Origin: Alphaproteobacteria bacterium
GTDB lineage: Bacteria > Pseudomonadota > Alphaproteobacteria > UBA11136
Reading direction: 5' to 3'
NCBI GenBank assembly: GCA_016776635.1
Contig: JADHSZ010000001.1
Coordinates: 35,064-99,063 of the forward strand
Length of the DNA stretch: 64,000 nt
Shown: positions 12,915 through 60,016 of the stretch, piece by piece
Layout of the letters: each line of letters opens with the position of its first letter
Position numbering within the stretch: the stretch's first letter is position 1
Notes under the pieces: model-generated
The model's input: the letters and a program-made list of their open reading frames with translations, nothing else
The model's database searches: none
Told to the model about the DNA's origin: nothing
Translations under genes and position numbers: made by a program

Positions 12915-14036
<1,122 letters not shown>

Positions 14037-30934: not shown

Positions 30935-32428
30935 TTAATGCAGTGTCTGTGGGGCGGGGAGAGGCTTGGAGCGGGGTCTGTAGACTTCGGCGGCCAGCAT
31001 CAGTCCCAGCTTGGTCTTTCTCCGAAGTTCGGAAAGGGACGTGAAACTCCGTAGCTCCCTGACAATGCGGCGTGGTTGGAAATAAAGCTGGCGTGTTCCC
31101 AAATTACGCATCTGTACTAGCATCTCTCGGTCCATATGCTCTTCCACAAGATGGGGGATACGATAATCCGGAACTGGATTTTTCGTAAATTCCCGCCAGA
31201 AATCATGAGGAATAACCCCTCGTTCCAGCCCCTGAGTGTAGATTTCCGTGCCGGGATAGGGAATGAGAATGACAAAAACAGGATAGTCAGGATCCAGTTT
31301 CTTCGCAAAATCAATGGTCATTCTGGCATCGGCAACGGTCTCGTCAAGAAACCCAAACATGAAATAGGCCATGACGGTCATGCCTGTTTCCTTGGCAATG
31401 GCGATGCCCGTTTCCACCTGTTCCATGGTCAGGAATTTACCCGATTTCTCAAGGATGCGTGGCGAGCCCGTTTCCACGCCGAAATGCACCCTGTTGCATC
31501 CGGCTTGTTTGAGAAGCCGGTAAAGTTCGGGTGTTACCCGGTTGGCGCGGTCTCGGATGGCCCAGTTGATCTTGATGCCGCGATCAATGATGCCCTGGCA
31601 GATATCCATTGCCCGGGCGATGCCCCAGGTAAAGGTGTCGTCGTAAACCTGGACGTCGGTGATTCCGAGATTGGCGATTTGCTCAAATTCATCCACTACT
31701 TGGGCGGCAGTTCGAGCGTAGACCTTCTGGACGTCCATCTTGCAGAATACGCATTTATAGGGGCACCCCCTGGAGGTAATCATGGTGGTCTCGTAATCGG
31801 CGGGGCTCAGAACGGAACTGTAACGTTGGTAGGGAAGCAGATTACGGTCGGGGGGGGGCACCTTGGTAATGTCATCTATCATTGCCAGGGGGTCCACCGG
31901 CGCAATGACACTGCCCTTCTCTTTGCGCCAGAGACCAGGTTGTTCGGCGATGGGACGGCCATAGACGAGATCTGACACCAGACTAAGCATCACGTCCTCA
32001 CCATCGCCCACTACAAGGAAATCGGCTTCGGAATATGTCAGGGATTCTTCGGGGTAAACGCCGCAATGGGGGCCGCCCAGAATGATGGCGCAATGGGGCA
32101 GCCTTTTTCGCAGCAGCCTCATGGTTTCCCAGGCGGGGTGCCAGAAATCTGTCCAGGCAGTGAAGCCGACAATATCCGGCTTCATGGCCACCAGCCGGTC
32201 CACGGTCTGTTGCGGCGAAAGTTCCTCCAACTGAGCGTCGAGGCACTGGACGTCGCTAAACCCGTTGGCCCGCAGATACGTGGCAAGAATCATGATCCCC
32301 AACGGCGGCTTGTGGCCGATGGCGTGATCATTGTGATAGGTGAACAGGGATTGCACGCACTGGTCGCTGGAAGGCTGGGCCAGGACGATCTTGCTGTTCT
32401 TCACGGGGCTTGTTGCGGTATCGGTCAT
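30935..32428 (-). CDS. Cobalamin(B12)-binding radical SAM protein (class B rSAM) #1
   Basis: N-terminal B12-binding Rossmann-like domain (..LGIMILATYLRANGF..KPDIVGFTAW..). The CX3CX2C motif is SRGCPYKCVFC, followed by a radical SAM TIM barrel. Confidence 0.8.
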   Translation of the reverse strand: MTDTATSPVKNSKIVLAQPSSDQCVQSLFTYHNDHAIGHKPPLGIMILATYLRANGFSDVQCLDAQLEELSPQQTVDRLVAMKPDIVGFTAWTDFWHPAWETMRLLRKRLPHCAIILGGPHCGVYPEESLTYSEADFLVVGDGEDVMLSLVSDLVYGRPIAEQPGLWRKEKGSVIAPVDPLAMIDDITKVPPPDRNLLPYQRYSSVLSPADYETTMITSRGCPYKCVFCKMDVQKVYARTAAQVVDEFEQIANLGITDVQVYDDTFTWGIARAMDICQGIIDRGIKINWAIRDRANRVTPELYRLLKQAGCNRVHFGVETGSPRILEKSGKFLTMEQVETGIAIAKETGMTVMAYFMFGFLDETVADARMTIDFAKKLDPDYPVFVILIPYPGTEIYTQGLERGVIPHDFWREFTKNPVPDYRIPHLVEEHMDREMLVQMRNLGTRQLYFQPRRIVRELRSFTSLSELRRKTKLGLMLAAEVYRPRSKPLPAPQTLH

Positions 32429-32727: not shown

Positions 32728-34209
32728 ATGCCCATGACCACCGCGTTAGACTTCTACAAGACCCTTTATGGCACCATCAGTAACTCTTCCCGGAATGCCT
32801 ATGTGTATTCCGACGAAAAGTACTCCTACGCCGACATGCGCCGCGAGATGATGTGTATCAACTCGGCCCTTTCCGGGAAGTCGAGAAAACGCATTGTGTT
32901 GTTCGCCCGCAAAGGTTTCTCTACCTACAACGCCTTGTTCGCCATCTTGCTGTCAGGGAATACTTGGATTCCCATCAACCCAGACATCCCCGAGGCACGT
33001 AACCTCGACATGATTTGCCTAGCGGAACCGGAGTTGATTCTGGTCGGTGACGAGCTATCTCCCAAGATCGCCGAATACGCCGCCGCCAACGGCTGTGAGG
33101 TGATCAAACTTGAGGACCTGATCTCGACCGGAGAGGAAACAGAATTTACCTATGAGGATTTCGCCGAGGACGATATCGCAATCATCTTCTTTACCTCGGG
33201 CTCCACCGGCCTGCCCAAGGGAGTATTGATGACTCATGGCAACTACATCCCCACCGTCGGTAATATCCTCGATCTCCTTCCCTACCAAAAGGGTGAGGTT
33301 TTTGGCGACTACCACGATTTGGGTTTCGTGTTATCAGTGAGTTATTTATTCACTTGTGTCCTCACAGAGAGCGCCTTCTGCCCGGCTATCGAAGACATCG
33401 AGCGCATGGCGCCCATCACCCATATGATCAAGAACAAGGTTACGGTCCTGGTCACGGTGCCCTCGACGATGGCCCGCATCCGGACCATGAAACGCGATGG
33501 CACCGGCGACCATTCCTTGCGCATCATCTGTCTTGCCGGCGAGCCGTTGCACCTGGATATCCTCGAGTATTGCTTCGACAAGCTAGAAGTGGACGACGTT
33601 TTCGATTTCTACGGCAGCACCGAGGTTGGCTGCTGGATATTCCACCACCCCTGCAGCCGCGAAGACCTCGATAAGTATGGCGACCTGGGGGTAGTTCCCA
33701 TTGGCAAACCCTTGCCTGGGAACGGGGTCAGGTTGTCGGAACAGGACGAGTTGCTGATTTCCGGCCCCCAGATCACCCCGGGCTACCTGAGTGGTGAGAA
33801 CGCCGAAAAGTTCCTCGATATCGACGGTGAGCGCTGGTTTTCTATGGGTGACAAGGTGCTGGACCGGGATGGGGTTTACATCTGCAAGGGGCGCCTCGAC
33901 TCTCAGGTCAAGATTGACGGTTACCGCATTGAACTGATGGATACCGAGGCCCATCTGAGGAGCCTGGATGGGGTCGACCAGGCTGTATGCTTCGTCGCTA
34001 AGGTGGGTGGGCACAACGCTATTGTTGCCGGGCTGGTTGGCCCCCGGGAGATCCGGATCCAAGAGGTGCGGGAGCAGGTGAAAGAGAAGCTTCCCTCTTA
34101 TATGATCCCACGCAAGGTGTTTTTTATCGAAAAAGTGCCGCTGAACAAAAGTGGCAAGATTGATCGCATTGCCGTGCAGGCCGGCTACGAGGAGATGGAG
34201 AAGGAATGA
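32728..34209 (+). CDS. Stand-alone adenylation-domain protein (DltA / NRPS A-domain-like amino acid--carrier protein ligase)
   Basis: Adenylate-forming core motifs FTSGSTGLPKGV, YGSTE, ISGPQITPGYL, FSMGD and GRLDSQVKIDGYRIELMDTE (A8-like), and a C-terminal ..KVPLNKSGKIDR. Confidence 0.75.
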   Translation: MPMTTALDFYKTLYGTISNSSRNAYVYSDEKYSYADMRREMMCINSALSGKSRKRIVLFARKGFSTYNALFAILLSGNTWIPINPDIPEARNLDMICLAEPELILVGDELSPKIAEYAAANGCEVIKLEDLISTGEETEFTYEDFAEDDIAIIFFTSGSTGLPKGVLMTHGNYIPTVGNILDLLPYQKGEVFGDYHDLGFVLSVSYLFTCVLTESAFCPAIEDIERMAPITHMIKNKVTVLVTVPSTMARIRTMKRDGTGDHSLRIICLAGEPLHLDILEYCFDKLEVDDVFDFYGSTEVGCWIFHHPCSREDLDKYGDLGVVPIGKPLPGNGVRLSEQDELLISGPQITPGYLSGENAEKFLDIDGERWFSMGDKVLDRDGVYICKGRLDSQVKIDGYRIELMDTEAHLRSLDGVDQAVCFVAKVGGHNAIVAGLVGPREIRIQEVREQVKEKLPSYMIPRKVFFIEKVPLNKSGKIDRIAVQAGYEEMEKE

Positions 34210-34285
34210 TCTGTCAGGCGGTATTGGAGAATGCTAGTCTGGCCAAGATGTCAATGTGGGGCGAACTCACTTCCGGCGGCGGCGT

Positions 34286-35368
34286 ATGAAAGTCGTATGT
34301 ATTCTTGGCGCCCGCCCCAATTTCATCAAACATTACGCCTTCCAGAAGGCGTGTCGTAGTAAAGGTCTTGAGTGCATCGCCGTTCACACGGGGCAGCATT
34401 CCGACGTTGATATGTCGGATATCTTTTTCCGCCAACTCGGCCTGGATCCACCGGCTTATCTTGACCGGCTGGAGAGGTTGACGCCAGCACGCGATCTCGG
34501 ACGAAAAATGGTATTTATCGAGGACGCTATCAAATGCGAAAGCCCTGCCCTGGTCGTGGTCTATGGGGATGTGGCCTCGACCCGGGCAGGTGCTCTGGCT
34601 GCCTCCGGATTGGGGGTTCCCGTGGCCCATGTGGAGGCGGGAGTGAGGGCCGGCAATATGAGCAACCCCGAGGAACTCAACCGCCGCATCGCAGAGCTGT
34701 GCGCCCACACCCTGTTTCCCAATATCGAATCGGCCCGCAGCAACCTGTTGGCCGAGGGCTTTCCCGAGGATGATATCTTCCTGACGGGCGACATTATGAT
34801 GGATAGTTTACTTGCGGTCCGCAACGCGCATGGCATCGAGCCCAGCAACGGCGATTACGTGCTGGTCACTCTGCACAGGGCGGAGAACACGGACGATCCC
34901 ACCCGGCTCTCGGCCATCTGCGAGACTCTGATGGCGGGGTCGCGGAATATTCGTTTCCCGGTCCACCCGCGTACTCGCGCCGCCTTGGAGTGCACTGATT
35001 TGTGGGGGCGCCTGTTGGCCTGTGGACACATCGATTTGATGCCGCCGCAAGGTTATGTGGAGACCGTCCGACTTATCGCCGGGGCCGAGCGGGTGTTGTC
35101 GGACTCCGGTGGTGTGCGCCGGGAGGCCTATATCTTCGGTAAGCCTGTGGTGTCTCTGATCGAGTTGATCTGGGTGCCCGAGATGATAGAGGCCGGCTGG
35201 GAGTTCGTCGCTGGAGCCGATACCGAAAGGATCCGCTATGGCCTTGAGACTTTCACGCCACCGCCGGGCCGCCCGGATATCTTTGGTGATGGCGGGGCCG
35301 CTCATCGCATGGTCGATATTCTCCTGGAAAGGTATGGCGGCGAAGCGAAAAGGCAGTACGGTTCATGA
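34286..35368 (+). CDS. wecB: UDP-N-acetylglucosamine 2-epimerase (non-hydrolysing), WecB family
   Basis: MKVVCILGARPNFIK.., ..VHTGQH.. and ..VAHVEAGVR.. are hallmark WecB/MnaA motifs. Confidence 0.85.
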   Translation: MKVVCILGARPNFIKHYAFQKACRSKGLECIAVHTGQHSDVDMSDIFFRQLGLDPPAYLDRLERLTPARDLGRKMVFIEDAIKCESPALVVVYGDVASTRAGALAASGLGVPVAHVEAGVRAGNMSNPEELNRRIAELCAHTLFPNIESARSNLLAEGFPEDDIFLTGDIMMDSLLAVRNAHGIEPSNGDYVLVTLHRAENTDDPTRLSAICETLMAGSRNIRFPVHPRTRAALECTDLWGRLLACGHIDLMPPQGYVETVRLIAGAERVLSDSGGVRREAYIFGKPVVSLIELIWVPEMIEAGWEFVAGADTERIRYGLETFTPPPGRPDIFGDGGAAHRMVDILLERYGGEAKRQYGS

Positions 35369-36135
35369 GTCTGGAAATCGGTACAGAAAGTGTCTCCGTG
35401 GTTATTCCCTGCCACAACGAGGCCGAGTCCCTACCCACCCTGTTTGCCCGCGTTTCTGAGATGAGGCGCTCTCTTGATGGTGTCATGCTGGTCCTTGTGG
35501 ATGACGGCTCCAGCGACGGCACGGGGGAGCTTCTGCGGGCGGAGTTCGGGGGCGATCCTGACGTGCGGGTGGTATCCCATGACGTAAGATTGGGATACGG
35601 CGGGGCGCTCAAGGTGGGCCTGGACGCGGCGGACGGTGATATCGTGGTTACCATCGACGCCGACACTAACTACGATATCCGCAATATCAAAAAGCTTCTT
35701 GAGGCCCTCGGCAACGGTGCCGACATGGTCACGGCGTCGCCGTTCATGGATGGCGGGGCCTGGAACTATCCGTTCCGCCGCTTCGTCATGAGCCGAGTCC
35801 TGGTAACCCTCTACCGGATGGCGCTGTGGAACCAGGTTGGGGATATCATGACCTTCACCTGCGGCTTCCGTGCCTATCGCCGCACCATCCTTGCCGCCGT
35901 CAGGCCCGACGCCGACGACTTTTTGGCCAACGCCGAAATTCTGGTTCGTGCCTTGGTCTTGGGGCTGACCGTGGCCCAGGCTCCGGCCACCGTATTTGAC
36001 CGCGAGCACGGCCGTTCCAAGCTCAAGACCGTGCCTATCATCCTGCGCCATCTGGGATTTCTGTGGAAGCTGCTCCTCCGCCGGGTTGAGGCGCGACCGG
36101 TGGAGCATCCCGAAGGACAGAGGAAGGAGGCGTGA
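35365..36135 (+). CDS. GT2 glycosyltransferase, polyprenol-phosphate sugar transferase-like (DPM1/ArnC-like, soluble type)
   Basis: VSVVIPCHNEAESLPTLF..LVDDGSSDGT..TIDADTNYD (DxD), 256 aa. Its start is 4 bp overlapped with wecB. Confidence 0.75.
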   Translation: MSLEIGTESVSVVIPCHNEAESLPTLFARVSEMRRSLDGVMLVLVDDGSSDGTGELLRAEFGGDPDVRVVSHDVRLGYGGALKVGLDAADGDIVVTIDADTNYDIRNIKKLLEALGNGADMVTASPFMDGGAWNYPFRRFVMSRVLVTLYRMALWNQVGDIMTFTCGFRAYRRTILAAVRPDADDFLANAEILVRALVLGLTVAQAPATVFDREHGRSKLKTVPIILRHLGFLWKLLLRRVEARPVEHPEGQRKEA

Positions 36136-37334
36136 TTCCCCGGCTATCCGCACCCTTCGATGTGACGGACGCCGGAGCTTTGGTGAGCGGCTGGGTGCGC
36201 CCCGGCGGCGAGGTGGCCTTTGAGGCGGCGGTGGCGGAGATGACCGGAAAGCGTTTTGTTCTGGCCTTCCCCTCCGGACGTAGCGGTTTTCACGCCCTGA
36301 TCAAGGCCATGGGGTGGCAAGACCGGGAGATCGTGCTTCCCGCCTACACCTGCGCGGTGATGGGCAACACGGTGCTGGCATCCGGTAACCGTCCACGCCT
36401 GGTGGACATCGAGGATTCGGACTTCAACATGGGGTTCAGGGCCCTGGCCTCAGCGGTGGGACGGGACACGGCGGCGGTGGTCGCCACCCATATGTACGGC
36501 TTTCCCATGGACCTGGAGGGGCTGGGCAAGGTCCTTGAAGGCCGTCCAGAGGTGGTGGTGATCCAGGACTGCGCCCTTGCCCTGGGGGCGCGTTATCAGG
36601 GACGTCCAGTATGGAGAGATGGGCTGGCGGTAATGTTCTCTTTCAGCCTGGGCAAGCACTTATCAACGGTGGAGGGTGGGGTGATGGCCACCGACGATGA
36701 GGGCCTCTACGCCGCCATGAAGGATTATCGGGATGGCACCCATCATCCGGCGGGGATCGTGCGAGCCGCTCGCCAATCGGCCTTCTTTATGGCCGGATGG
36801 CTGGGACTCAGGCCCTGGCTTTACAGTCTGGTCCATGGACTGACAACACGCACCGGGGCACTCGGTTTTCTGTCCAAGCACTACGAGCCGAACCGGGTCT
36901 ATCTGCCGCCCAATTTCCGCGAGAGGCTGCCCAACTGCCTCGGTCACTTGGGGGCTAATCAGGTGGGCAAGGCCTCCGGTTTGGTGTCGCGGCGCATCGA
37001 AATATCAGAGGCCTATCGGCGTGAACTGGCCGGGGTTCCCGGATTGAGTTGGCCGTCTCCCCGCGACGGGGCCAGTTTTTCCCACTGTCCATGCCTGATC
37101 GAAGACCGCGACGGCTTCATTGCCTTCATGACCGGACAGGGCATCCACGTGGGCAAGGAAGTGTTCGACTACGCTTTACCCGATATCCCCCTGTTTGCGC
37201 CCTTCGCGGATGGGGATTGCCTCGAGGCAAAAAAAGTGGCGCGTTGGGTGGCCCTGTTGCCTAACCATCCCGGTCTGAGCGACAATGATGTGGAGCAGGT
37301 GATCGCGGCGACCAAACGATGGGGCGTCCTATGA
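36132..37334 (+). CDS. DegT/DnrJ/EryC1/StrS-family PLP-dependent sugar aminotransferase (ArnB-like)
   Basis: Aspartate-aminotransferase fold with the catalytic lysine in FSFSLGKHLSTVEGG. It is overlapped and co-oriented with the GT2 upstream. Confidence 0.85.
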   Translation: MIPRLSAPFDVTDAGALVSGWVRPGGEVAFEAAVAEMTGKRFVLAFPSGRSGFHALIKAMGWQDREIVLPAYTCAVMGNTVLASGNRPRLVDIEDSDFNMGFRALASAVGRDTAAVVATHMYGFPMDLEGLGKVLEGRPEVVVIQDCALALGARYQGRPVWRDGLAVMFSFSLGKHLSTVEGGVMATDDEGLYAAMKDYRDGTHHPAGIVRAARQSAFFMAGWLGLRPWLYSLVHGLTTRTGALGFLSKHYEPNRVYLPPNFRERLPNCLGHLGANQVGKASGLVSRRIEISEAYRRELAGVPGLSWPSPRDGASFSHCPCLIEDRDGFIAFMTGQGIHVGKEVFDYALPDIPLFAPFADGDCLEAKKVARWVALLPNHPGLSDNDVEQVIAATKRWGVL

Positions 37335-38794
37335 CCGCCATCTCGGTTATCACAGCTCCCGGAATTAAGGATTCCTGGCTCGACTATACGGTGCGGCTGA
37401 TGAGTCACCTGAGTGGTCTGAACCTGCAACTGGTTACTGCTTCTGAGACGCCCATTGAGGGGCCGAGGCTGTATTACGGCGTCCGGCCGGAGAAGTCCGG
37501 CATGCCGTTCATTCCCCGTTGTCCCGGTTATGCGCCTGGCCAAATGCGTTTCGTCCCCCTGGATTGTGGAGAGTCGGGAATGCAGGAAGTTCTAGTCTAT
37601 TCGGATACGCTTAACGAAACGGGAAACGGCATCGACCTGCTGTTCAATCTTTTCGCTTATGCCTCCTGCCTGGAGGAATGGGAACACGAGCGGCGCTCGG
37701 GACCCGTTCATTCCTACGCTTTGCGCCTTAAGGGAGACGGGCGGCGTTTCGACAGGCCCTACGCCAATTATATCGCATTGGCCCTGAGGCGGCTCATTGA
37801 CCAGGCTTTTCCAGGCGTTTGCCCTCCGGCTTCCGCGGCAGGGGCCATCTGCCTGACCCACGACATTGACGTGGTCGACAAGGCTTTAGTCACCCGACTC
37901 AAGGAAGGAGTATTCCGCCTGTTCAACGCAGGGCGCAGCATGGCGACCGGTCGGCCAAGCATGGCAGTGGATACCCTGGTCTCAGCTTGGCGTCTGGCGA
38001 CAAGCCGGGAGGGCTATTTCCACCTGGAGACCATTGCCGCCTTGGAGGCGCGCCACGGGTTTGTCTCGACCTTCAACGTTTTCACCAGGCAACGGCCCGG
38101 GAGTGTTTCCGGGTTCCTGCTTCGCGCCATTTTTGATCCTCCCTACGACCTTGCCCGTCATCCCCGGCTGGTGGCTGCCTTGAAGCGACTGGCGGCGCGG
38201 GGGCACGAAATCGGCATCCATTTTGCCTTTGATGCTTGGCGCGACGCCGAGTCCATGCAAGCGGAACGCCAGGTGGCGGAAGGAATCCTCAAGACGGGTT
38301 CTATTGTTTCCGCTCGCCAACACTGGTTCCGCTTCTCCCTAGCGGACACCTGGCAAGCTCAGCAACAGGCCGGGATTGAGGTTGACGCCACCCTTGGCTT
38401 TACTGATCGCCCGGGGTTCCGGGCCGGTCTTGCCAGTCCCTTCCACCCCTACGATCATGCCACTGGCAAGGCCCTGGATATGGTGGCTATACCAACGGTA
38501 TTAATGGACACCCACCTGTATTATTATGGCAACCTCTCGGTCGCCAAACGCCGCAAGACGGTCCGCCATCTGCTTGGTGAGGTCGGCGCGGTTGACGGCG
38601 AGGCCTGCGTCCTCTGGCACACCCATGTTTTCTCCGCCGATCACGGCTGGGGAGAGGATTACGAGGCGCTTCTGGGCATGATGGGGGTTCTGAACCTCGA
38701 ATCCCGTCTGGTCCGCGAAGGCCTAGGCGGCCCTGAGAAACTTCCGGGTCCGCCTGGAAGTTGCGAGGTACAAGCTGCCCTGGGGGCGGCTTGA
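37319..38794 (+). CDS. CE4 (NodB-type) polysaccharide deacetylase-family protein with an N-terminal extension of about 180 aa
   Basis: CE4 motif-1-like CLTHDIDVVD and motif-2 GHEIGIHFAF (compare the GHEIGNH NodB box). Confidence 0.55.
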   Translation: MGRPMTAISVITAPGIKDSWLDYTVRLMSHLSGLNLQLVTASETPIEGPRLYYGVRPEKSGMPFIPRCPGYAPGQMRFVPLDCGESGMQEVLVYSDTLNETGNGIDLLFNLFAYASCLEEWEHERRSGPVHSYALRLKGDGRRFDRPYANYIALALRRLIDQAFPGVCPPASAAGAICLTHDIDVVDKALVTRLKEGVFRLFNAGRSMATGRPSMAVDTLVSAWRLATSREGYFHLETIAALEARHGFVSTFNVFTRQRPGSVSGFLLRAIFDPPYDLARHPRLVAALKRLAARGHEIGIHFAFDAWRDAESMQAERQVAEGILKTGSIVSARQHWFRFSLADTWQAQQQAGIEVDATLGFTDRPGFRAGLASPFHPYDHATGKALDMVAIPTVLMDTHLYYYGNLSVAKRRKTVRHLLGEVGAVDGEACVLWHTHVFSADHGWGEDYEALLGMMGVLNLESRLVREGLGGPEKLPGPPGSCEVQAALGAA

Positions 38795-39010
38795 AAAACC
38801 CTACCTACGACATAAGCCGTCTGGTGCGATCAAAGCGTATTGCCACGGCTGATTTTCTGTGAATTTTATTAGAGGAACCTGTCATGAGTAGGGGATTTAG
38901 CGGAAAATTATTCTGCACAAGCGTGGTAGCCTCAAAATTCTGGTTAAAGAGTTCATGTTGAGCCAGAATCAGCCTACTTTGTGTCAGTGGCGTAAAGCCT
39001 CTTGGCCGCG

Positions 39011-39352
39011 ATGGGTGAAAATAGTCAAAAACACGAGAATGGTCCTGTGGAAAACATGCGCAAGAAGATTGAAAGTCTAGTCATACAGGCCTTGGCCGAC
39101 TGTTACGAAGAATTCGGCACAGAACTTGAGGCGAACCCCCAGAGCTTCATCTTTGGAGGAGATTCGCCTCTGGATTCCACAGCCGTGGTCTCCCTTCTGG
39201 TAGACTTGGAGGCGCGCATGGAGGACGAGATGAAAATAGTGGTTTCGTTTACTGATGAACGCGCCTTCTCCCAAGAGCAAAGCCCGTTTCACGACGTGAC
39301 CAGCATGACCGACTATATCATGGTTCTGTATGGGGAGAATCAAGGTGAGTGA
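39011..39352 (+). CDS. Acyl/peptidyl carrier protein (phosphopantetheine attachment site)
   Basis: About 100 aa acidic protein with a PCP-like motif FIFGGDSPLDSTAVVSLLVDLE (serine in GGDS). The start is ambiguous (39002 TTG, 39011 or 39056 ATG). Confidence 0.7.
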   Translation: MGENSQKHENGPVENMRKKIESLVIQALADCYEEFGTELEANPQSFIFGGDSPLDSTAVVSLLVDLEARMEDEMKIVVSFTDERAFSQEQSPFHDVTSMTDYIMVLYGENQGE

Positions 39353-40046
39353 CGATACCGTCATGCTGATCAGCGGCACCAGTCGCGGTATCGGTCGTCA
39401 TCTGGCCGAGCACTACGTTTCCCAAGGCTGGATTGTCGCCGGATGCAGCCGGGGCGAATGCGATCTGGAGCATCTCAACTACCATCACTCCACGGTCGAT
39501 ATCACCGATGAGGCCGAGGCCGTAGCTTGGGTGCGCGGCGCCTCAAAGGAGTTCGGGCGCATCGACGCAGCCCTCAACAACGCCGGTCTGGCGAGCATGA
39601 ATCACGCCCTCCTGACCCCGGTTGAGACCGTGGAAAATCTGTTCGACGCCAACTTCAAGGGCACTTTTGTGATCTGTCGTGAGGCTGCCAAGATCATGCA
39701 GCGACGCAAGTTCGGTCGTATCGTGAATTTTGGCTCTATCGCCGTGTCCATGGCCCTGGAGGGGGAATCAATCTATGCCGCGACTAAAGCCGCAGTAACC
39801 ACCTATTCCCGAATTCTGGCCCACGAGTTAGCGCCGTGGAACATCACTGTAAACGTGGTTGCCCCGTCGCCTATCAAGACAGATCTAATCAAGGGTGTGT
39901 CTGAGGGCACCATGCAGAAACTGCTGGATAGAATGGCTATCAAGCGCTATGGAACCTTCGAGGACACCAGTAACGTGATTGATTTTTTTCTAAGCCCGGA
40001 AAGCTCCATGATCACTGCTCAGGTTATCACTCTCGGAGGGCGCTGA
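39330..40046 (+). CDS. Short-chain dehydrogenase/reductase (FabG-like ketoreductase)
   Basis: Cofactor motif ISGTSRGIG and catalytic S..YAATKAA (YxxxK) with NNAG. It overlaps the carrier-protein gene. Confidence 0.8.
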   Translation: MGRIKVSDDTVMLISGTSRGIGRHLAEHYVSQGWIVAGCSRGECDLEHLNYHHSTVDITDEAEAVAWVRGASKEFGRIDAALNNAGLASMNHALLTPVETVENLFDANFKGTFVICREAAKIMQRRKFGRIVNFGSIAVSMALEGESIYAATKAAVTTYSRILAHELAPWNITVNVVAPSPIKTDLIKGVSEGTMQKLLDRMAIKRYGTFEDTSNVIDFFLSPESSMITAQVITLGGR

Positions 40047-41386
40047 TGGCATTTTGGCTGCTGGACCGCATTGAAGAATACGGTGAGCGCAAGGCCATCA
40101 TCTGCGAGGGCAAAGATTACAGCTATCACAATCTCTCCAATCTCGTTGAGGCTTGGCGTAGCCGTCTTGGTGAGGCTACGATTGGGACGGGTCGAGTGGT
40201 CGCTCTGGTCGGAGATTTCTCCGCCGAGACCTGCGCCGCATTCCTGGCCCTGATTGATGGCCGCAACATCGTCGTGCCCTTGACCCCGTCTACCTACGAG
40301 AAGAATCCGGAGTTCCTGGACATTGCCGAGGTCCAGTTCATACTGCGCCCAGACGTCTCCATGGATGTGGAGGAGCGTCCGGTGAAGATTGCCAACCCTT
40401 TGAACAAGGACTTCATTAAGGCGGGCAAGTCAGGTCTGGTGCTGTTTTCGTCGGGCTCGACGGGAGCCAGCAAGGCGGCCCTGCATGATCTGACATTACT
40501 ATTGGAGAAGTTCCGTATCCGGCGTCAGGCGCTGAGGACTATGATTTTTCTAATGCTCGACCACATTGGCGGGGTCAACACCTTCTTTCACGTTATTGCC
40601 AATGGCGGTACAGTAGTTGCGATCAGCGACCGAACCCCTGGCAACGTGTGCAAGGTTATCCAGGAAACCGGGGTCGAACTCTTGCCGGTTTCGCCCACCT
40701 TTCTCAACCTGATGCTTTTTTCCGGCGAGCACCGCAACTACGATCTCGGGAGCTTGAAGAAAATCACCTACGGCACCGAGCCCATGCCCCAATCGACCCT
40801 GGATAGGATGCACAGTGAGTGTCCCGGAGTTGTCCTGCAGCAGACCTATGGACTGTCCGAGCTCGGAATCCTGCGTTCGAAAAGTCGCAATGACGATTCC
40901 CTATGGGTCAAGGTGGGTGGTGAGGACTTTGAGACCCGGGTCGTGGACGGGGTTCTGTGGATCAAGTCACGCTCAGCCATGCTGGGGTATCTCAATGCGC
41001 CGTCGCCATTTGACGAGGAAGGCTGGTTTAATACCAAGGACGTAGTTGAGGTGGACGGTGACCACATTCGTATTCTGGGCCGCGATTCAGAGATCATCAA
41101 TGTCGGCGGCGAAAAGGTCTTTCCCACCGAGGTCGAGAATCATGTCCTGGAGGTTGAGAACATCAAGGACGTTATTGTATTCGGCGAAGCTCATTCGCTG
41201 ACTGGCCAAATGGTGGTGGCTAGCGTTAACCTGTTTGAGAAAGAGCTCAATCGCGATGTCAAAAAGCGCATCCGCATGTCCCTGAGGGAAAAGGTGGCCC
41301 CCTTCAAGATTCCTCAGAAAGTGATTGTTGCCGACGACGTCCACTTCAACGAGCGATTTAAGCGTATGCGGCTGAGGCGTACATGA
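40046..41386 (+). CDS. AMP-dependent synthetase/ligase (short acyl-CoA / acyl-carrier-protein ligase type)
   Basis: AMP-binding motif LVLFSSGSTGASKAALHD with TYGLSE, 446 aa. It is adjacent to the carrier protein and the SDR. Confidence 0.75.
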   Translation: MAFWLLDRIEEYGERKAIICEGKDYSYHNLSNLVEAWRSRLGEATIGTGRVVALVGDFSAETCAAFLALIDGRNIVVPLTPSTYEKNPEFLDIAEVQFILRPDVSMDVEERPVKIANPLNKDFIKAGKSGLVLFSSGSTGASKAALHDLTLLLEKFRIRRQALRTMIFLMLDHIGGVNTFFHVIANGGTVVAISDRTPGNVCKVIQETGVELLPVSPTFLNLMLFSGEHRNYDLGSLKKITYGTEPMPQSTLDRMHSECPGVVLQQTYGLSELGILRSKSRNDDSLWVKVGGEDFETRVVDGVLWIKSRSAMLGYLNAPSPFDEEGWFNTKDVVEVDGDHIRILGRDSEIINVGGEKVFPTEVENHVLEVENIKDVIVFGEAHSLTGQMVVASVNLFEKELNRDVKKRIRMSLREKVAPFKIPQKVIVADDVHFNERFKRMRLRRT

Positions 41387-41396
41387 GGGAACATGG

Positions 41397-42002
41397 TTGA
41401 TTGAGTTTCGTGATTTAGCGCCTTGTCACCTCAACAAGCTCGTCGAGGCCCACCTCACTACCTGGAGCGGGAACGACCTGTCGGTCCGCTTGGGGGAAGG
41501 TTTTGTCAGGAGGTTCTACGAACTGGCCATTGAGGATACCACCTCCTTTGCCGTGGGAGCCGGGACATCGGAGAATGAGGAATTGAGTTGCTGGTGTCTC
41601 GGCTTCACCTGCTATGAAGATTTCAATTCCCGACTAAAAAAGTCCCTGGGACTTGGGTTCTATTTTCTAGTCCTCGGTCGGATGCTGACCGGACGTTTGC
41701 CTCTGGGCCAGATCGCTGACCAGTTCCTGCGTCCCAAGCCCTATCGCAAGGCCCAATGCCCGGACGCTCATCTCGGCGCCTTCGGATGTTTCGAGGAGGG
41801 TATGGAGGCAGTCCTGACGTTGTCCTCCCTGATTGGCCATGTGGCAGAGAGACTGGGCGAATCTCACCCGGCATGCTGGTCGGTCACCGCCAAGGACAAT
41901 CGAGGCGCCGACATGGTTATGAAACGGGCCGGTTTCAAGGTTATCGACGCAATACGTCTGAGCGGCAGTGAAACGGTGATATATGAATATACCAGCCGAT
42001 AA
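41397..42002 (+). CDS. Putative GNAT-like N-acyltransferase (hypothetical)
   Basis: 201 aa. The C-terminal ..MVMKRAGFKVID resembles GNAT motif B. It sits at the end of the carrier-protein module. Weak assignment. Confidence 0.4.
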   Translation: MIEFRDLAPCHLNKLVEAHLTTWSGNDLSVRLGEGFVRRFYELAIEDTTSFAVGAGTSENEELSCWCLGFTCYEDFNSRLKKSLGLGFYFLVLGRMLTGRLPLGQIADQFLRPKPYRKAQCPDAHLGAFGCFEEGMEAVLTLSSLIGHVAERLGESHPACWSVTAKDNRGADMVMKRAGFKVIDAIRLSGSETVIYEYTSR

Positions 42003-42996
42003 GGTCATGAATCTGCTGCGCTGTCCGGCATGTGGTCACGATCAATTGGACTTCGAGGTGCAGAGCGGTTCCTGGGCCATGTGCGGATACTGCTCGGAGG
42101 AATTCCCGGTTATCGACGGTATCCCGTTTCTGTGTATTGGGGATATTGTCGGACTTGCCAGGCAGTGCGGCCCGGAGTTTCTTGATGACGAGCAAGGCGG
42201 CAACGAGATCAAGCGGGCCAACGTAATCTATCACAACGAGTTCGCCGAATCTTACGAACAGGACGTTTCCACCTACGACATGTTCCAGGATGGTGGTCCC
42301 TGTCAGCAACGTCTCGATCATAACCTTGCCGAGGCTGCTGCGCGCACTGGCGGTGGAGTGCTGGTGGATGTCTGCTGTGGCACCGGCAATGTGCTCAGTG
42401 CTGCGCAAGAGTATTTTGACACGCGGCTCGGTATCGACCTGTCGACCAGCATGATGAAGATTGCGCATGGGCGCGGCCTGGAAGTATTGGGCGGCGACGC
42501 AACCAATCTTCCGATTAAGGATAAGAGTGCTGACTGTGTTACTGCCTTCAGCGCTCTGCACCACGTTCTCGACTATGAGGCTATGGCCGCTGAGATGGCG
42601 AGAGTCCTGAAACCGGGCGGCACTTTCTATTCGGACTGGGACCCCAATGGCCACGTTACCCACACCGGCTGGGCGGTGTCTTTGGCCACAGGAACCCTAA
42701 AAGCTCTACGTCGTCTGACCTCCAAGGTCAACATCCCCGAAACCCCGTTGCAGGATCTGGCTGAATGTCATCACCACTCCGAGGACGGATTCGACGGCAA
42801 AAAAATATGGACTGTGCTGGAGAAGGCCGGGTTCTCCAGGGTCGAGGTCTATTACCACATCAACCCGCCGAGCCTCGGCAAGACCTCGTCTTGGGGGCTC
42901 TATGGCTGGTTTATGGCGGCACTCAAGATCGTTAGTTTCATCGTCCCAACGAACAGCAAGGTTCTACCCTATGTCGCCGTAGTGGCGGTCAAATAG
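41983..42996 (+). CDS. Class I SAM-dependent methyltransferase with an N-terminal Trm112-like zinc ribbon
   Basis: N-terminal LLRCPACGHDQL..CGYCSEEFPVIDGIPFL (CxxC..CxxC). Motif I is VLVDVCCGTGNV and motif post-II is VLKPGGTF. Confidence 0.75.
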   Translation: MNIPADKVMNLLRCPACGHDQLDFEVQSGSWAMCGYCSEEFPVIDGIPFLCIGDIVGLARQCGPEFLDDEQGGNEIKRANVIYHNEFAESYEQDVSTYDMFQDGGPCQQRLDHNLAEAAARTGGGVLVDVCCGTGNVLSAAQEYFDTRLGIDLSTSMMKIAHGRGLEVLGGDATNLPIKDKSADCVTAFSALHHVLDYEAMAAEMARVLKPGGTFYSDWDPNGHVTHTGWAVSLATGTLKALRRLTSKVNIPETPLQDLAECHHHSEDGFDGKKIWTVLEKAGFSRVEVYYHINPPSLGKTSSWGLYGWFMAALKIVSFIVPTNSKVLPYVAVVAVK

Positions 42997-43002: not shown

Positions 43003-43893
43003 TTAGTCCGTGTAGGCGATGGGGCCGACGGCTCCGTCCCATTGGCCATACTTGACTTCCTTGATCGGCAGATCCTCCGCCTTCAGCTGCTCGGCGTAAT
43101 GGTCGCAGCGTATCCCTTTGTAGCCGTTGTCCGCCATGTGGGTGAACAGGTCACGCAGGTGATCGCGAAAGTGGACATAATCATATTCGGTGTGCAACAG
43201 CAGGCATAAAAAATCGTCACAAGCTTCGATTTGGCTGATCAGGTCATCGAGGCTTTTTTTGTGGTTACCCCGATTGCGCACAACAATGGAGAACACCGAC
43301 TCAATGTTAACCGGCACCTGGATGGTGGAGGAGACTCTATCACCAACCCTGACCTGGCACGGTTCAGGGCCTCCCACGTCTGATGCATAGAGGAATTCCA
43401 TGGGATCCTGCACATCGGCAAAAACCTGATTGTAGCGCCGCCCCGGAGAGCCGGTGCCGGCTGGGTCGTGGCCAAGGATGTCCCGGTAGGCCTCACAGGC
43501 CATATCGATCTGTTTTCGGTAGTCGACGGCGCTCATGGAATAGGCATTGTCGGAAATGGTGGCGTGATCGTAGCCGTGCAGGGCGATCTCATGGCCATGT
43601 TCCTCGATCATCCGTAGCACCTCGGGATGCCCGGCACCGATATCGCCTGTTTTGTCCACGTCCTTGTCGAACCAAGTGTAGGTCTTCCAGGGCTTCATAT
43701 AGAAACTCTGCTTCCAGAACGAGGGTCGCCAGATGCGCCAAAGCGCAGCCTTGAGCACATTGTTCTGTCCCAGGGGGATGAAGAAGGAGGCCTGGAAGTT
43801 ATGTTTCCCCAACTCCTTGAGATAAAACGGGATGGCGTTGCGGATTCCCTCCACCGAGTCCACGTCGATCCGGATAATAACGGACTTTGTCAC
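43003..43893 (-). CDS. CE4 polysaccharide deacetylase-family protein (ArnD-sized, 296 aa)
   Basis: CE4 motif 1 RIDVDS and motif 2 HGHEIALHGYDHA. Confidence 0.65.
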   Translation of the reverse strand: MTKSVIIRIDVDSVEGIRNAIPFYLKELGKHNFQASFFIPLGQNNVLKAALWRIWRPSFWKQSFYMKPWKTYTWFDKDVDKTGDIGAGHPEVLRMIEEHGHEIALHGYDHATISDNAYSMSAVDYRKQIDMACEAYRDILGHDPAGTGSPGRRYNQVFADVQDPMEFLYASDVGGPEPCQVRVGDRVSSTIQVPVNIESVFSIVVRNRGNHKKSLDDLISQIEACDDFLCLLLHTEYDYVHFRDHLRDLFTHMADNGYKGIRCDHYAEQLKAEDLPIKEVKYGQWDGAVGPIAYTD

Positions 43894-45533
43894 GGAGCAG
43901 CTTTTGTCACTTGATGGCTCGCAACGAGTTCGCCGGTTTCCTCACTGCCTTTTTCCGCCTTGGCGGTTGGGATTTTGACCGTCTTGAGAGGTGGTTCACT
44001 CTCGCGGATTCGCACTCCACCGTCGAACAGGATGCGTCTGAACCATAGCAAGTAGGTTCCCATCACGTGCTGGGACACAGGATCCGAGTTGCGAAAGGTG
44101 AGGAACAGATCGATGAAGAACATGGTTATGGTTTTGGGCATGAAGGCTAACAGCCTGACCAGATTCTTCTCGAGGATGAAGAAGCGGGCCTTTTTAGGCA
44201 GGGCTGGCATGATGCGGTAGAAAATGGCGTAGGCCCGGAACAGTCTCTTGAGCTTGATGTCGGTGGTGATGCCGTAGTCATAATAAAAGTTGGAGTGGCC
44301 TTGGTTGATCTTGTCCTCATCCTCGGGCTTGATCATCCCCCACTCGATGGCCTTCTTGACCATTGGGGTCTTGGGATAGCAGGTAAGGAAAAAAGTATTG
44401 ACCTTGTGCACCTGCTCGCACTTTGAATATTCCCAGGCGGCATTATAGAGATTTTCTTCATTGTTCTCGTCGGGCAACCCGAAGATATGGTCACAGGAGT
44501 ATTTAACCCCGTACTTGTCCAGGGAATCAAAACAGGCGCGAATCTGTTCGTTGGTCTCGGGACGGTACAGGTGCTTCTTGCGGTTTTCCTCGTTCATGGA
44601 CTGGATGCCGAGCTGCAGGCGGTAGCAACCACTTTCGCTGAGCAGCCGCGCCACCTCGTCATTCATGGGTAGCGGGTGTCCCATGCAGATGTAGGGGATG
44701 TTGATTTTCTCTTTGTACTTCTCGGCGAATTCGCGGAACCAAGCGTGGTTGGAATAGAAAACGTTATCCTCAAAGTCGATCAGGCGGATGTCGTAACGCC
44801 TCTTGGCCTCAAGCAACTCGTCGATGACTAGGTCGGGGGAGCGCCGGCGTGGGTCGCGGCTGCCGTTGAACTCTTCGTAGAATGCCTGGGAACAGAAGCT
44901 ACACGAGATGATGCAGCCCTTGGACGCATGGATGTAGTAGCGATTGCCGACATGAATATCGTCCTCGAACAGGGCCATGTCGTCGGGCTGTAGCTCGTTC
45001 AGGTCCTGTAGTGGGCGCACCGGGTTACGCACCAGCCCAGACTCCTGGCCGTCATCGGTCTTGAAAATAAGGTTGCCGATGGAGGTGTCGATTTTACCCC
45101 GGTCCAGGGAGTCGGCTAACTCGACCATGGGTTGCTCGCCCTCGCCCATGCATACGATGTCGACCCAGGGGGTGCCAAGCGGCGTCTCGGGGCAGTTGGT
45201 AGGAAAGACTCCACCAAAGATTACGGGGGTGTCGATGCGTTTTTTAACACCCTCAGCGATGGCGATGGCCCACTGATAGGTATCGGAGATAACACTGATA
45301 GCCACTATGTCGGGTTCCAGAGCGACGATTTTGTTAATCGCTTTCTTGCGCTGCGAAAACATCTTGGCAAGTACGTTGAAGGGGAAGCTACTGCCCGAGA
45401 AATAAAGGTGCTCGTCGAACAGAGAAGGATCGAAGACCAGAGCGGTCTCATGGCCGGCATGCTTGAGGGTTGCCGAGATGCTCCCGGTACCCATGTTCAT
45501 TTCGCCCATTGTCACGAATACGATTTTAGCCAA
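43890..45533 (-). CDS. Cobalamin(B12)-binding radical SAM protein (class B rSAM) #2
   Basis: N-terminal B12-binding domain (MAKIVFVTMGE..) and CX3CX2C in SKGCIISCSFCSQ. Its stop is overlapped by 4 bp with the CE4 gene. Confidence 0.8.
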   Translation of the reverse strand: MAKIVFVTMGEMNMGTGSISATLKHAGHETALVFDPSLFDEHLYFSGSSFPFNVLAKMFSQRKKAINKIVALEPDIVAISVISDTYQWAIAIAEGVKKRIDTPVIFGGVFPTNCPETPLGTPWVDIVCMGEGEQPMVELADSLDRGKIDTSIGNLIFKTDDGQESGLVRNPVRPLQDLNELQPDDMALFEDDIHVGNRYYIHASKGCIISCSFCSQAFYEEFNGSRDPRRRSPDLVIDELLEAKRRYDIRLIDFEDNVFYSNHAWFREFAEKYKEKINIPYICMGHPLPMNDEVARLLSESGCYRLQLGIQSMNEENRKKHLYRPETNEQIRACFDSLDKYGVKYSCDHIFGLPDENNEENLYNAAWEYSKCEQVHKVNTFFLTCYPKTPMVKKAIEWGMIKPEDEDKINQGHSNFYYDYGITTDIKLKRLFRAYAIFYRIMPALPKKARFFILEKNLVRLLAFMPKTITMFFIDLFLTFRNSDPVSQHVMGTYLLWFRRILFDGGVRIRESEPPLKTVKIPTAKAEKGSEETGELVASHQVTKAAP

Positions 45534-47727: not shown

Positions 47728-48333
47728 TTACCCTGTTGTTTTGGTTGAAGCGCATGGAATCACGTATAAACAATTACTTATGTCATTTCTCGCGATCTGA
47801 CGTCCTATCTTCCGGTAAAACAAATTTGGCTTTTGATTAGATTTTAACACCTGTGCAAAACACGATGAGAATCCGCGCCGGTCTATTTCTTTAAGACATT
47901 TAAAAAAAGAAAAAAAACCTGCTTGAGACCCAATCGAAGTATCCGTATCCACCACCCAACTTAAAATTTCCGCCGATATATTGAGTTTCTTTATATCTCT
48001 GGGAATTAAAAAAACATTTTCTAACAGATGGGGAATGTCTCCTGGGTGAAGGAACGCCGACCCAACAATTCTAATCGATTTACGAAAATCCACCACCCTA
48101 CGTATTCGCTCCCGTGCTGCAGTCGAATTCGTGGTTGCCGAAATAAAGCCAGCCAGATTTCCATCTTCTGGGTTTTCATAAACAACGACGAAAAAATCGT
48201 CTTCTTTCCACAAATTTTCATATATTTTCTGTATGTGAATCAGGCCAAGGCGTCCATTAATGGTCCACTTCAATTCCTGGTAATGCAATTTGGAAATTGC
48301 AGGAATATCGTCAATATTTCCTAGGCGGACCAT
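47728..48333 (-). CDS. GNAT-family N-acetyltransferase-like protein (low-GC gene)
   Basis: 201 aa with a weak GNAT pattern (..VVVYENPEDGNLAGF.. and ..RRGFSSCF..). GC is near 40% against a backbone of about 65%. Confidence 0.45.
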   Translation of the reverse strand: MVRLGNIDDIPAISKLHYQELKWTINGRLGLIHIQKIYENLWKEDDFFVVVYENPEDGNLAGFISATTNSTAARERIRRVVDFRKSIRIVGSAFLHPGDIPHLLENVFLIPRDIKKLNISAEILSWVVDTDTSIGSQAGFFSFFKCLKEIDRRGFSSCFAQVLKSNQKPNLFYRKIGRQIARNDISNCLYVIPCASTKTTG

Positions 48334-59995: not shown

Positions 59996-60016
59996 TAAAA
60001 ATTATTTAATATATTT

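Follow-up and report, generated by a model that had tools for sequence, protein, structure and literature searches.

The window analyzed here is a 64,000-nucleotide stretch of contig JADHSZ010000001.1 from an alphaproteobacterium of the UBA11136 lineage, and the subject of the analysis is a block of genes within it that brings together an acyl carrier protein (ACP), two adenylating enzymes, a short-chain dehydrogenase/reductase (SDR) and an acyltransferase of the GNAT family. Within the interval from 23.9 to 61 kb, all open reading frames (ORFs) with 150 aa or more were scanned for protein domains. Housekeeping genes (FtsH, FolP, GlmM, ThiC/D, PurA, an RpoH-like sigma factor and RluD) are located upstream of approximately 28.8 kb and a dense glycan locus extends from position 28,843 to the end of the window. 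This locus contains several glycosyltransferases of the GT2 and GT4 families, two DegT aminotransferases, an AsnB-type amidotransferase and deacetylases (Table 1). The block is split in the window into an adenylation (A) domain-WecB-GT2-DegT-VimE-like part and an ACP-SDR-ligase-GNAT-methyltransferase (MT) part, and a B12-binding radical SAM gene diverges from the A domain gene. The genes of the second part are translationally coupled. The ACP and SDR genes overlap by 23 nt, the SDR and ligase genes are joined by a TGATG junction, and the GNAT gene starts 11 nt past the ligase stop and overlaps the MT gene by 20 nt if translation of the latter begins at position 41983. Scans for promoters and terminators yielded nothing above shuffled expectation. 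A first-pass annotation of this stretch had named an adenylation enzyme, a carrier protein, an SDR, a second ligase, a GNAT-like protein and adjacent DegT enzymes, and all of these genes are present.

The same grouping of genes was found in independent loci. In Magnetovibrio sp. PR-2 (L002) the order is B12-binding radical SAM, ACP, SDR, ligase, GNAT, MT, A domain, GT2, DegT and VimE-like gene, followed downstream by WbpD-like, WbpB-like, AsnB and DegT genes, and the proteins are 40-61% identical to those of the window. A 52.7-kb metagenome contig (L090) is colinear with it over all ten genes, with 42-62% identity to the window, and the fragments L086 and L089 contain GNAT-MT-A domain-GT2. The ortholog of the radical SAM gene that diverges from the A domain in the window (42-44% identity) is located directly upstream of the ACP gene in both L002 and L090, and the GT2 gene follows the A domain in syntenic position in L002, L086 and L090. 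Homologs of the VimE-like protein (39-45% identity) were detected in L002, L090 and the polysaccharide locus L004, where the gene adjoins AsnB, and AsnB homologs are encoded in L002, L004 and L090. The synteny of the same genes in independent loci indicates that the grouping is more than chance, and the colinearity of the ten-gene block in L002 and L090 shows that the carrier protein and both adenylating enzymes have been conserved together. The first-pass annotation had made its case depend on such conservation in related genomes and had called the presence of two different adenylating enzymes unusual; two such enzymes are uncommon, and the block has conserved both of them. The reading that we favor, with somewhat better than even confidence, is that the block represents a tailoring set that would assemble a short, oxygenated acyl chain on a carrier protein of its own and then place it onto a sugar amine of a surface glycan.

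Directly upstream of the block in L002 (positions 324-5437) are genes for an FkbH-like protein, an 81-aa protein, an MBOAT protein and a 318-aa protein. The 81-aa protein, for which no Pfam match is on record, is possibly a second carrier protein. This FkbH/MBOAT set looks Dlt-like and could attach a glyceryl-derived unit to a polymer by O-acylation. It was not found in the window by tblastn with its MBOAT protein.

The ORF that ends at position 39352 is, judged by its family profile, a divergent carrier protein. The single sequence (39002/39011-39352) has no match in Pfam (none at E ≤ 10), NCBIfam or the Protein Data Bank (PDB). Homologs were gathered from related loci (44 sequences), and 28 of them were aligned together with three database relatives. 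The profile of these 31 sequences retrieved only ACPs and D-alanyl carrier proteins (DltC) from the PDB, with 2l4b as the best match (E = 0.0017), and PF00550 matched weakly in 8 of the 31 homologs (best E = 8e-4). Residues L39, D40 and S41 are invariant throughout the alignment, with the Ser41 codon at positions 39176-39178. This LDS motif aligns with the LDSLD of the ACP 2l4b, and hhalign placed Ser41 on Ser36 of E. coli AcpP. The first-pass annotation had assigned phosphopantetheinylation to the serine of a GGDS motif (Ser37). As this residue is variable among the homologs and Ser41 is invariant, the attachment site is predicted to be Ser41, the next serine after GGDS. The proposed carrier protein therefore stood and the conserved serine on which it had been made to depend was found at the AcpP attachment site, but the GGDS serine itself had to be given up. 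A translation start at 39047 or 39056 rather than at 39011 is suggested by the homologs. Members of the family are approximately 98 aa long and share a conserved C-terminal SPFR motif. A word-indexed homolog search with the ACP returned 3 matches only.

The protein encoded by the overlapping downstream gene was classed from its sequence matches as a classical, FabG-like SDR that is not the housekeeping FabG. At E ≤ 1e-30 the PDB gave 11 matches, each of them a FabG 3-oxoacyl-ACP reductase, and PF00106 and PF13561 are well over threshold, but TIGR01830 reaches only 152.9 bits against a cut-off of 297.75. The following ligase resembles MenE, FadD and 4-chlorobenzoate ligase in both its family and its PDB matches. 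A scan of its distribution, with one genome per species, identified full-length orthologs with 46-55% identity at 80 genome loci, 75 of which contain enough upstream sequence for their context to be read. A same-strand SDR gene is located upstream of the ligase gene in 43 of the 75, and in 42 of these a member of the same ACP family is present as well, so that ACP and SDR directly precede the ligase. The SDR gene is found directly downstream of the ligase in 31 loci, all from actinomycetes, and only 2 loci have neither ACP nor SDR beside the ligase. According to their record titles, the 42 ACP-SDR-ligase loci belong to Chloroflexota, Acidobacteriota, Planctomycetota, Verrucomicrobiota, Desulfobacterota and Pseudomonadota. 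The gene immediately before the ACP gene encodes a DegT protein in four Acidobacteriota loci, and on a B. thuringiensis plasmid the ligase gene adjoins the same ACP family. The slot after the ligase is occupied by a hexapeptide-repeat (LbH) acyltransferase in 31 loci and an AT3 membrane acyltransferase is also present in 35; a GNAT gene in this slot was detected only in the window, L002 and L090. This looks like displacement of the hexapeptide acyltransferase by a functional equivalent.

The ties of the ligase to ACP and SDR across these loci, together with the plasmid-borne ACP and the polyketide synthase (PKS) contexts described below, argue that it loads a carrier protein. On this evidence of context the ligase family is best read as such a loader and not as a CoA ligase, and the ACP-SDR-ligase trio as a source from which the downstream transferase, of whatever type, would receive an edited acyl group. 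The trio is apparently a widespread and uncharacterized cassette, as our literature search found neither a description of it nor a study of any of its members. The cassette had no match in 5,426 E. coli genomes and no known O-serotype could therefore be linked to it.

The five-gene arrangement of ACP, SDR, ligase, hexapeptide acyltransferase and AT3 acyltransferase occurs in six phyla (L006-L074, e.g. L073 at 8965-13008 and L035 at 9003-13284). In Alteromonadaceae, other Gammaproteobacteria and a few Planctomycetota and Verrucomicrobiota loci it adjoins a gene for a protein of 840-1200 aa, whose sole domain is a weak PcRGLX-like match at the N-terminus, and in Marinobacter it abuts the lpxD-fabZ-lpxA-lpxB region. 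The same ligase family also heads a cluster on plasmids of Bradyrhizobium japonicum USDA 123 (L105, 8643-19144) and Burkholderia sp. JSH-S8 (L106, 7691-17326). This cluster consists of ligase, SDR, ACP, a type I PKS of approximately 2,100 aa and an alpha/beta hydrolase, with a phosphopantetheinyl transferase added in Bradyrhizobium.

Sequence profiles and a structural model both indicate that the small protein encoded next to the ligase is a genuine, though divergent, GNAT. The identical sequence is listed as a hypothetical protein in a metagenome-assembled genome labeled 'Alphaproteobacteria bacterium', and it has no Pfam or NCBIfam match of its own. A family profile searched against 1.84 billion representative proteins returned 91 relatives, among which P0022 and P0018 exceed the PF00583 cut-off, and the same profile matched 59 PDB chains that are essentially all GNAT-type acetyltransferases. 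A scan of genome contigs with a 5-sequence alignment of the GNAT found no relative, and a word-indexed search with the profile gave 8 matches. An AlphaFold2 model (predicted local distance difference test score, pLDDT, 80.8) gave 60 PDB matches at E ≤ 1e-3 with Foldseek, and all 50 matches listed of these 60 have the GNAT fold with probability 1.00 and template modeling scores of 0.5-0.63. Rv1347c/MbtK, a GNAT with an acyl-ACP donor, is among these fold matches. The relative P0022, named 'perosamine synthetase' in its source, is a DegT aminotransferase fused to the same GNAT domain, and in L004 the gene of a distant family member overlaps the DegT stop codon in a polysaccharide locus that also contains AsnB and a VimE-like gene. 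The fusion and this neighborhood link the GNAT family to DegT-made amines, and the family is probably one of sugar N-acyltransferases. With this the FabG-like SDR, the second short acyl ligase and the small GNAT-like protein of the first-pass annotation were all borne out, by families, PDB matches and fold, and its core idea that an acyl group is moved from a carrier to a DegT-made amino sugar gains from the DegT-GNAT fusion, the L004 neighborhood, the translational coupling and the synteny in three loci.

The GNAT gene is paired with the MT gene in the window, L002, L003, L089 and L090, and the MT gene always occurs in this pairing. The window also encodes a more distant paralog of the GNAT, between the AsnB-type amidotransferase and a YdjC-formyltransferase fusion, that likewise has no Pfam or NCBIfam match of its own. 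The presence of this paralog means that the locus may N-acylate two different amines. In L003, an 884-aa protein (7223-9877) is encoded between an ArnD-like deacetylase and the GNAT-MT pair, in place of ACP-SDR-ligase. It has no recorded Pfam match and no similarity to any locus compared, and its interpretation as a fused ACP-SDR-ligase was rejected because it does not resemble those proteins.

The enzyme encoded at the head of the A domain part appears from its matches to be a diverged stand-alone member of the nonribosomal peptide synthetase (NRPS) type. PF00501 is matched with 151 bits and TIGR01733 with 205.8 bits (cut-off 317.4), and the top PDB matches are A domains of LgrA, with the best being module 2, which activates glycine, followed by DltA. 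The core motifs A3 (FTSGSTGLPKG), A5 (YGSTE), A7 (GD), A8 (GRLDSQVKIDGYRIEL) and A10 (SGKIDR) are present, but the A4 motif reads FVLS (F200-V201-L202-S203) in place of FDxS. The alignment to LgrA module 2 is gapless from A3 to A4 and Val201 therefore corresponds to position 235, at which the Magnetovibrio ortholog also has Val. DltA and amino-acid-activating A domains keep Asp at this position. We tentatively take the ten-residue code to be V-L-S-V-C-A-F-C-W-K, from motif alignment and GrsA numbering, with only positions 235 and 517 being secure. As Val replaces the Asp that binds the alpha-amino group, an ordinary alpha-amino acid substrate is unlikely, and a 2-oxo, hydroxy or other non-amino acid is, on these sequence features, more likely. 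In 2-keto-acid-activating A domains a hydrophobic residue replaces Asp235, and these domains work with a ketoreductase (PMC10949194, PMC13643306). The first-pass annotation had called the enzyme DltA/NRPS-type. The NRPS part agrees with the PDB matches and with TIGR01733, although below its cut-off, but the DltA part does not hold: TIGR01734 scores 178 bits against 559.85 and NF003417 188.9 bits against 476. DltA-type D-alanylation was rejected on these scores, the loss of Asp and the lack of DltB (MBOAT) and DltD, neither of which was found in the window by domain scans and tblastn with the Magnetovibrio MBOAT protein.

A-domain orthologs with approximately 50% identity are encoded in L002, L086, L089 and L090. 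Three roles are conceivable for the A domain: It could charge the only ACP, extend the acyl group on the carrier by a second unit, as VinM does in vicenistatin biosynthesis, or act directly on a sugar. A second carrier protein reserved for the A domain was considered and rejected, as the window contains one gene of the ACP family and no gap big enough for another. It is also conceivable that the A domain, and not the short ligase, is the main loader. In this case the A domain would charge the ACP with a 2-oxo acid, the SDR would act as a trans ketoreductase to give a 2-hydroxyacyl-ACP, the GNAT would form an N-(2-hydroxyacyl) sugar and the ligase would be accessory or provide a second unit. 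A hydrophobic residue at position 235 is a hallmark of keto-acid A domains partnered with ketoreductases (PMC10949194, PMC13643306), Val201 is conserved, and the thioester-forming motifs A8 and A10 are intact. Yet the SDR group accompanies the ligase and the ACP in 42 loci without an A domain of this kind, the closest relatives of the SDR are FabG 3-oxoacyl-ACP reductases and not NRPS ketoreductase domains, and the A domain groups with the GT2-DegT-deacetylase genes instead of the ACP gene. We consider this 2-oxo-acid route to be quite improbable.

The genes surrounding the block provide some indication of the sugar that is modified. The GT2 protein (ArnC-like), the DegT protein next to it (ArnB/PseC-like), the ArnD-like deacetylase and the formyltransferase domain form an Arn-like set, all members of which score under the equivalog cut-offs. 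For the GT2 protein the top NCBIfam matches are ArnC (78 bits), dolichyl-P hexose transferase, AglJ and PpgS, all below cut-off. The ArnD-like protein matches NF011923 over its full length (E = 1.8e-31, 109 bits), below the cut-off of 382, and has homologs in L003 and L090. The YdjC fusion scores 130 bits with HpnK and 69 bits with the ArnA N-terminal domain, both under the cut-offs. These similarities suggest a polyprenyl-phosphate-linked amino sugar whose amine would be transiently masked and unmasked. The VimE-like protein matches NF053580 with 57.9 bits over residues 274-442, far under the cut-off of 440, and has no Pfam match and no meaningful match in a PDB sequence search. Together with the AsnB-type amidotransferase and the WecB-type epimerase it recalls the Wbp/Vim route, in which the 2-N-acetyl group is removed and replaced (PMC7468200). 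WbpB-like and WbpD-like genes adjoin the block in L002 and L090; domain scans found no WbpA, WbpB or WbpD in the window and no FemAB-like, GFO/IDH/MocA or hexapeptide gene either. The radical SAM protein of the block reaches no NCBIfam equivalog. The second B12-binding radical SAM protein is 64% identical to one encoded near the GNAT-MT pair of L003, from which it is separated there by a deacetylase gene and the unannotated 884-aa gene.

Table 1. Genes of the conserved block and of the adjoining part of the glycan locus, in window coordinates.
Feature	Position	Strand	Supporting matches
B12-binding radical SAM protein, probable C-methyltransferase, member of the conserved block	30935..32428	-	PF02310, PF04055
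Stand-alone NRPS-type A domain, 493 aa, Val201 replacing Asp235	32728..34209	+	PF00501, PF13193, TIGR01733
WecB-type non-hydrolysing UDP-GlcNAc 2-epimerase	34256..35368	+	PF02350 251 bits; TIGR00236 214.1 bits (cut-off 210.15)
GT2, polyprenyl-phosphate sugar synthase type (ArnC/PpgS/AglJ-like)	35365..36135	+	NCBIfam, below cut-offs
DegT-family sugar aminotransferase (PseC/ArnB-like)	36132..37334	+	PF01041 166.6 bits, PseC 114, ArnB 98
Putative sugar de-N-acetylase, distantly VimE-like	37319..38794	+	NF053580 (VimE) E 6.5e-16
Divergent ACP	39056..39352 (alternative starts 39011, 39047)	+	invariant LDS serine, family profile
FabG-like SDR	39330..40046	+	PF00106, PF13561, PDB matches
Short ANL-family acid ligase, 446 aa, predicted ACP loader	40046..41386	+	PF00501, PF13193
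Divergent GNAT-fold acyltransferase, 201 aa, predicted sugar N-acyltransferase	41397..42002	+	family profile, AlphaFold2/Foldseek
Class I S-adenosylmethionine-dependent MT	41983..42996	+	PF08241 and related families
ArnD-like deformylase/deacetylase (CE4)	43003..43893	-	PF01522; NF011923 (ArnD)
Second B12-binding radical SAM protein	43890..45533	-	PF02310, PF04055
AsnB-type glutamine amidotransferase, WbpS-like, probable uronamide formation	45752..47683	+	PF00733 292 bits; TIGR03108 438 bits (cut-off 817)
Second GNAT-family member (paralog)	47728..48333	-	family-profile hmmsearch E 5.5e-09
YdjC/HpnK-like deacetylase fused to ArnA-type formyltransferase domain	48439..50289	+	PF04794 161 bits, PF00551 60 bits

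This setting lends itself to another explanation, in which the A domain would load an amino acid onto the carrier in a DltA/DltC-like manner and the GNAT would transfer the aminoacyl group to a de-N-acetylated amine. Such aminoacylation, an option that the first-pass annotation had also allowed, would correspond to the VimE/VimA step that yields 2-N-seryl/2-N-glycyl uronic sugars, but with a carrier protein involved. It agrees with an NRPS-type A domain that has all core motifs and finds LgrA module 2 and also DltA chains in the PDB, and with the presence of a VimE-like deacetylase, an AsnB/WbpS-like amidotransferase and a WecB-type epimerase in the locus. The WbpD-like and WbpB-like genes that follow the block in L002 and L090 also fit, as the Wbp/Vim route is documented (PMC7468200). 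The A domain itself is the main obstacle: It has Val and not Asp at position 235 in both the window and Magnetovibrio, and scores 178-189 bits with DltA models whose cut-offs are 476-560. In addition, the window encodes no DltB/MBOAT or DltD, and aminoacylation leaves the FabG-like reductase and the second ligase, which are tied to the ACP across six phyla without an A domain, unexplained. Aminoacylation is therefore very unlikely.

For the favored reading, transfer of an oxygenated acyl group, we infer the functional steps from the gene identities and their synteny. The ANL ligase would adenylate a small oxo- or hydroxy-carboxylic acid and load it onto the phosphopantetheine at Ser41 of the ACP, and the FabG-like SDR would reduce the keto group of the tethered acyl chain. 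As domain scans found no ketosynthase in the locus, the keto group must arrive with the loaded acid, and conversion of acetoacetate to 3-hydroxybutanoyl-ACP is the simplest guess for the acyl group, to which we would give about one chance in four. The GNAT would then acylate the amine of a sugar; this amine would be the product of the DegT enzyme of the block or would be exposed by the VimE-like or ArnD-like deacetylases. Methyl groups would be added by the MT and the B12-binding radical SAM enzymes, and the ArnC-like GT2 protein would transfer the sugar to polyprenyl phosphate for export. The A domain may activate a second, 2-oxo or hydroxy acid, which would be non-amino because the Asp that binds the alpha-amino group is missing; this acid could be loaded onto the same ACP or be joined to the first unit or a second amine.

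Several observations weigh against this proposal. The single-sequence AlphaFold2 model of the ACP had a pLDDT of 45 and was discarded, so that the fold was not confirmed, and domain scans of the locus ORFs found no phosphopantetheinyl transferase gene. The assignment of position 235 in the A domain comes from motif alignment and not from a structure. A-domain orthologs in L087 and L088 are found on short contigs that have no ACP-family gene, and they adjoin genes for an AAC(3)-like N-acetyltransferase, a B12-binding radical SAM protein and a cytidylyltransferase. In L003, the 10 kb upstream of the GNAT-MT pair contain no gene of the ACP-SDR-ligase trio, with the contig ending 1.3 kb downstream of the pair. 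Distant members of the GNAT family, such as the one in L004, have no ACP nearby and the GNAT could accordingly use acyl-CoA. The trio, for its part, also occurs in contexts without obvious sugar genes, namely the Marinobacter lipid A genes and the PKS sites.

Some of these observations would be accommodated if two separate pathways were encoded side by side. The GNAT would then N-acetylate the DegT product with acetyl-CoA, and ACP-SDR-ligase, with or without the A domain, would feed another acceptor by O-acylation of a polymer or by modification of a lipid or small metabolite. Both the GNAT genes that lack a nearby ACP or upstream trio (L004, L003) and the modularity of the trio, which is combined elsewhere with LbH and AT3 transferases, type I PKS or lipid A genes, are in line with this view. 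However, the domain scans identified no AT3, MBOAT, LbH or PKS protein in the window locus that could take the acyl-ACP, and its only acyltransferases are the two GNAT-family proteins and the formyltransferase domain. Moreover, the GNAT gene begins 11 nt after the ligase stop in the exact slot of the LbH transferase elsewhere, and three loci share the gene order ACP-SDR-ligase-GNAT-MT-A-GT2-DegT even though their proteins are only 40-60% identical. Separate pathways are therefore regarded as unlikely, although less so than aminoacylation or the 2-oxo-acid route.

By analogy, the closest documented counterpart of the block is the viosamine island of P. syringae pv. tabaci (vioA, vioB, vioR, vioS, vioM, acp, vioT), which produces dTDP-N-(3-hydroxy-1-oxobutyl)-2-O-methylviosamine (PMC3927599). 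The island encodes an aminotransferase, an ACP, a 3-oxoacyl-ACP reductase, a ketosynthase III, an acyltransferase and a methyltransferase and is related to the flagellin glycosylation island of P. aeruginosa PAK (PMC3927599). Both systems have a DegT-type aminotransferase, a small ACP, an SDR resembling 3-oxoacyl-ACP reductases, an N-acyltransferase and a methyltransferase. The ketosynthase III (VioS) of the island is replaced here by an ANL ligase and the LbH protein VioB by a novel GNAT; the ACP is from another, longer family, and the A domain, B12-binding radical SAM proteins, deacetylases and ArnC-like GT2 protein are additional. In V. cholerae O1, RfbK-L-M-N-O provide for the tetronate N-acylation of perosamine. 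An ACP, an adenylate-forming ligase and an acyltransferase in an O-antigen locus, with a hydroxyacyl group presumably destined for a DegT-made amino sugar, are common to that system and the present one. The first-pass annotation had likened this locus to the RfbKLMNO logic. Membership in that type does not hold, as scans at the domain level of the ORFs with 150 aa or more from 23.9 to 61 kb found no Fe-alcohol dehydrogenase (RfbM), LuxC/LuxE-type (RfbN) or hexapeptide (RfbO) enzyme, and the SDR, the GNAT and the second A domain are present instead.

Removal of an N-acetyl group and re-acylation with a group other than acetate would be shared with the Wbp/Vim pathway of Porphyromonas gingivalis and Tannerella forsythia (WbpA/B/E/D, WbpS, WbpI, VimE and VimA; PMC7468200). 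A VimA/FemAB-type transferase is lacking here, however, and the donor would be an acyl-ACP and not an amino acid. The logic proposed for the trio and the GNAT is also that of the mycobactin mbt-2 cluster. There, the FadD33/MbtM ligase, the ACP MbtL, MbtN and the GNAT MbtK (Rv1347c) attach a long fatty acid to a lysine side chain of the siderophore. The order of events proposed for the block is the same, with a stand-alone ACP charged by a ligase, its acyl group edited by a redox enzyme and the product passed to an amine by a GNAT-fold enzyme, but acceptor and acyl group differ and there is no sequence-level orthology to the block. The Arn pathway consists of ArnB, the ArnA formyltransferase, ArnC and ArnD, and related systems modify lipid A with GalN or GlcN. 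Counterparts are seen here in the ArnC-like GT2, the ArnB/PseC-like DegT, the ArnD-like deformylase and the ArnA-type formyltransferase domain. Their scores are nevertheless far under the equivalog cut-offs, no ArnT or ArnA decarboxylase was recognized, and the carrier module has no Arn counterpart. Finally, the 2-keto-acid A domains of cereulide and cryptophycin synthesis (PMC10949194, PMC13643306) resemble the A domain of the block in that a hydrophobic residue takes the place of Asp235 while the domain is canonical in other respects, and in that an enzyme of the ketoreductase type is encoded nearby. Here, in contrast, the A domain, the carrier and the reductase are individual small proteins encoded within a glycan locus, the reductase resembles FabG and a condensation domain is missing. 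The principle of carrier-dependent N-acylation is known, and the present combination of enzymes has not been described before.

Other features of the window were recorded alongside the block. The load of radical and C-methylation enzymes is unusually heavy for a polysaccharide cluster, with three B12-binding radical SAM proteins, one other radical SAM protein and two TylC3-type C-methyltransferases (30935-32428 (-), 43890-45533 (-), 62292-63875 (+), 60017-61057 (+), 51446-52723 and 56768-58003). The stretch from 60001 to 62000, which covers the radical SAM gene at 60017 and a GT2 gene at 61070, has a G+C content of 0.41 compared to 0.50-0.63 elsewhere and may be a recently acquired segment of the locus. 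A large soluble loop and approximately seven hydrophobic segments characterize a 671-aa protein (53679-55694, minus strand). Pfam and NCBIfam contain no match to it and the PDB no meaningful one, and it is a candidate for a transferase or polymerase that would use the polyprenyl-phosphate sugar. Just before the gene of the RpoH-like sigma factor, a 674-aa protein with a C-terminal hydrophobic segment is encoded (23936-25960), whose sole match, to a protein kinase, is sub-threshold (23.8 bits).

A broader reading that joins these observations is possible, even though we consider it more doubtful than the tailoring function itself. ACP-SDR-ligase would be a portable acyl-donor cassette that plugs into LbH and AT3 transferases (in at least six phyla), into the new GNAT family and into type I PKS, and the Magnetovibrio-type block would add an A domain lacking Asp235 and B12-binding radical SAM methylases to assemble a two-part or C-methylated hydroxyacyl group on a de-N-acetylated amino (uronamide) sugar. 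If true, the Magnetovibrio-type block is a glycan-tailoring pathway without a described equivalent, and an A domain with Val235 in a glycan locus would extend the activation of keto and hydroxy acids beyond depsipeptide NRPS. The carrier and ligase families recur in dozens of genomes from many phyla, where Pfam and NCBIfam miss them or label them 'fatty acid--CoA ligase', and the new GNAT family, of which 1.8 billion representative proteins contain approximately 90 clusters, is linked to DegT aminotransferases. N-acyl groups other than acetyl influence how bacterial surface sugars act as antigens and are recognized by the immune system, and the genes that supply such groups are known in few cases. 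The block provides a testable gene set for unusual sugar acylation in the cultured Magnetovibrio sp. PR-2.

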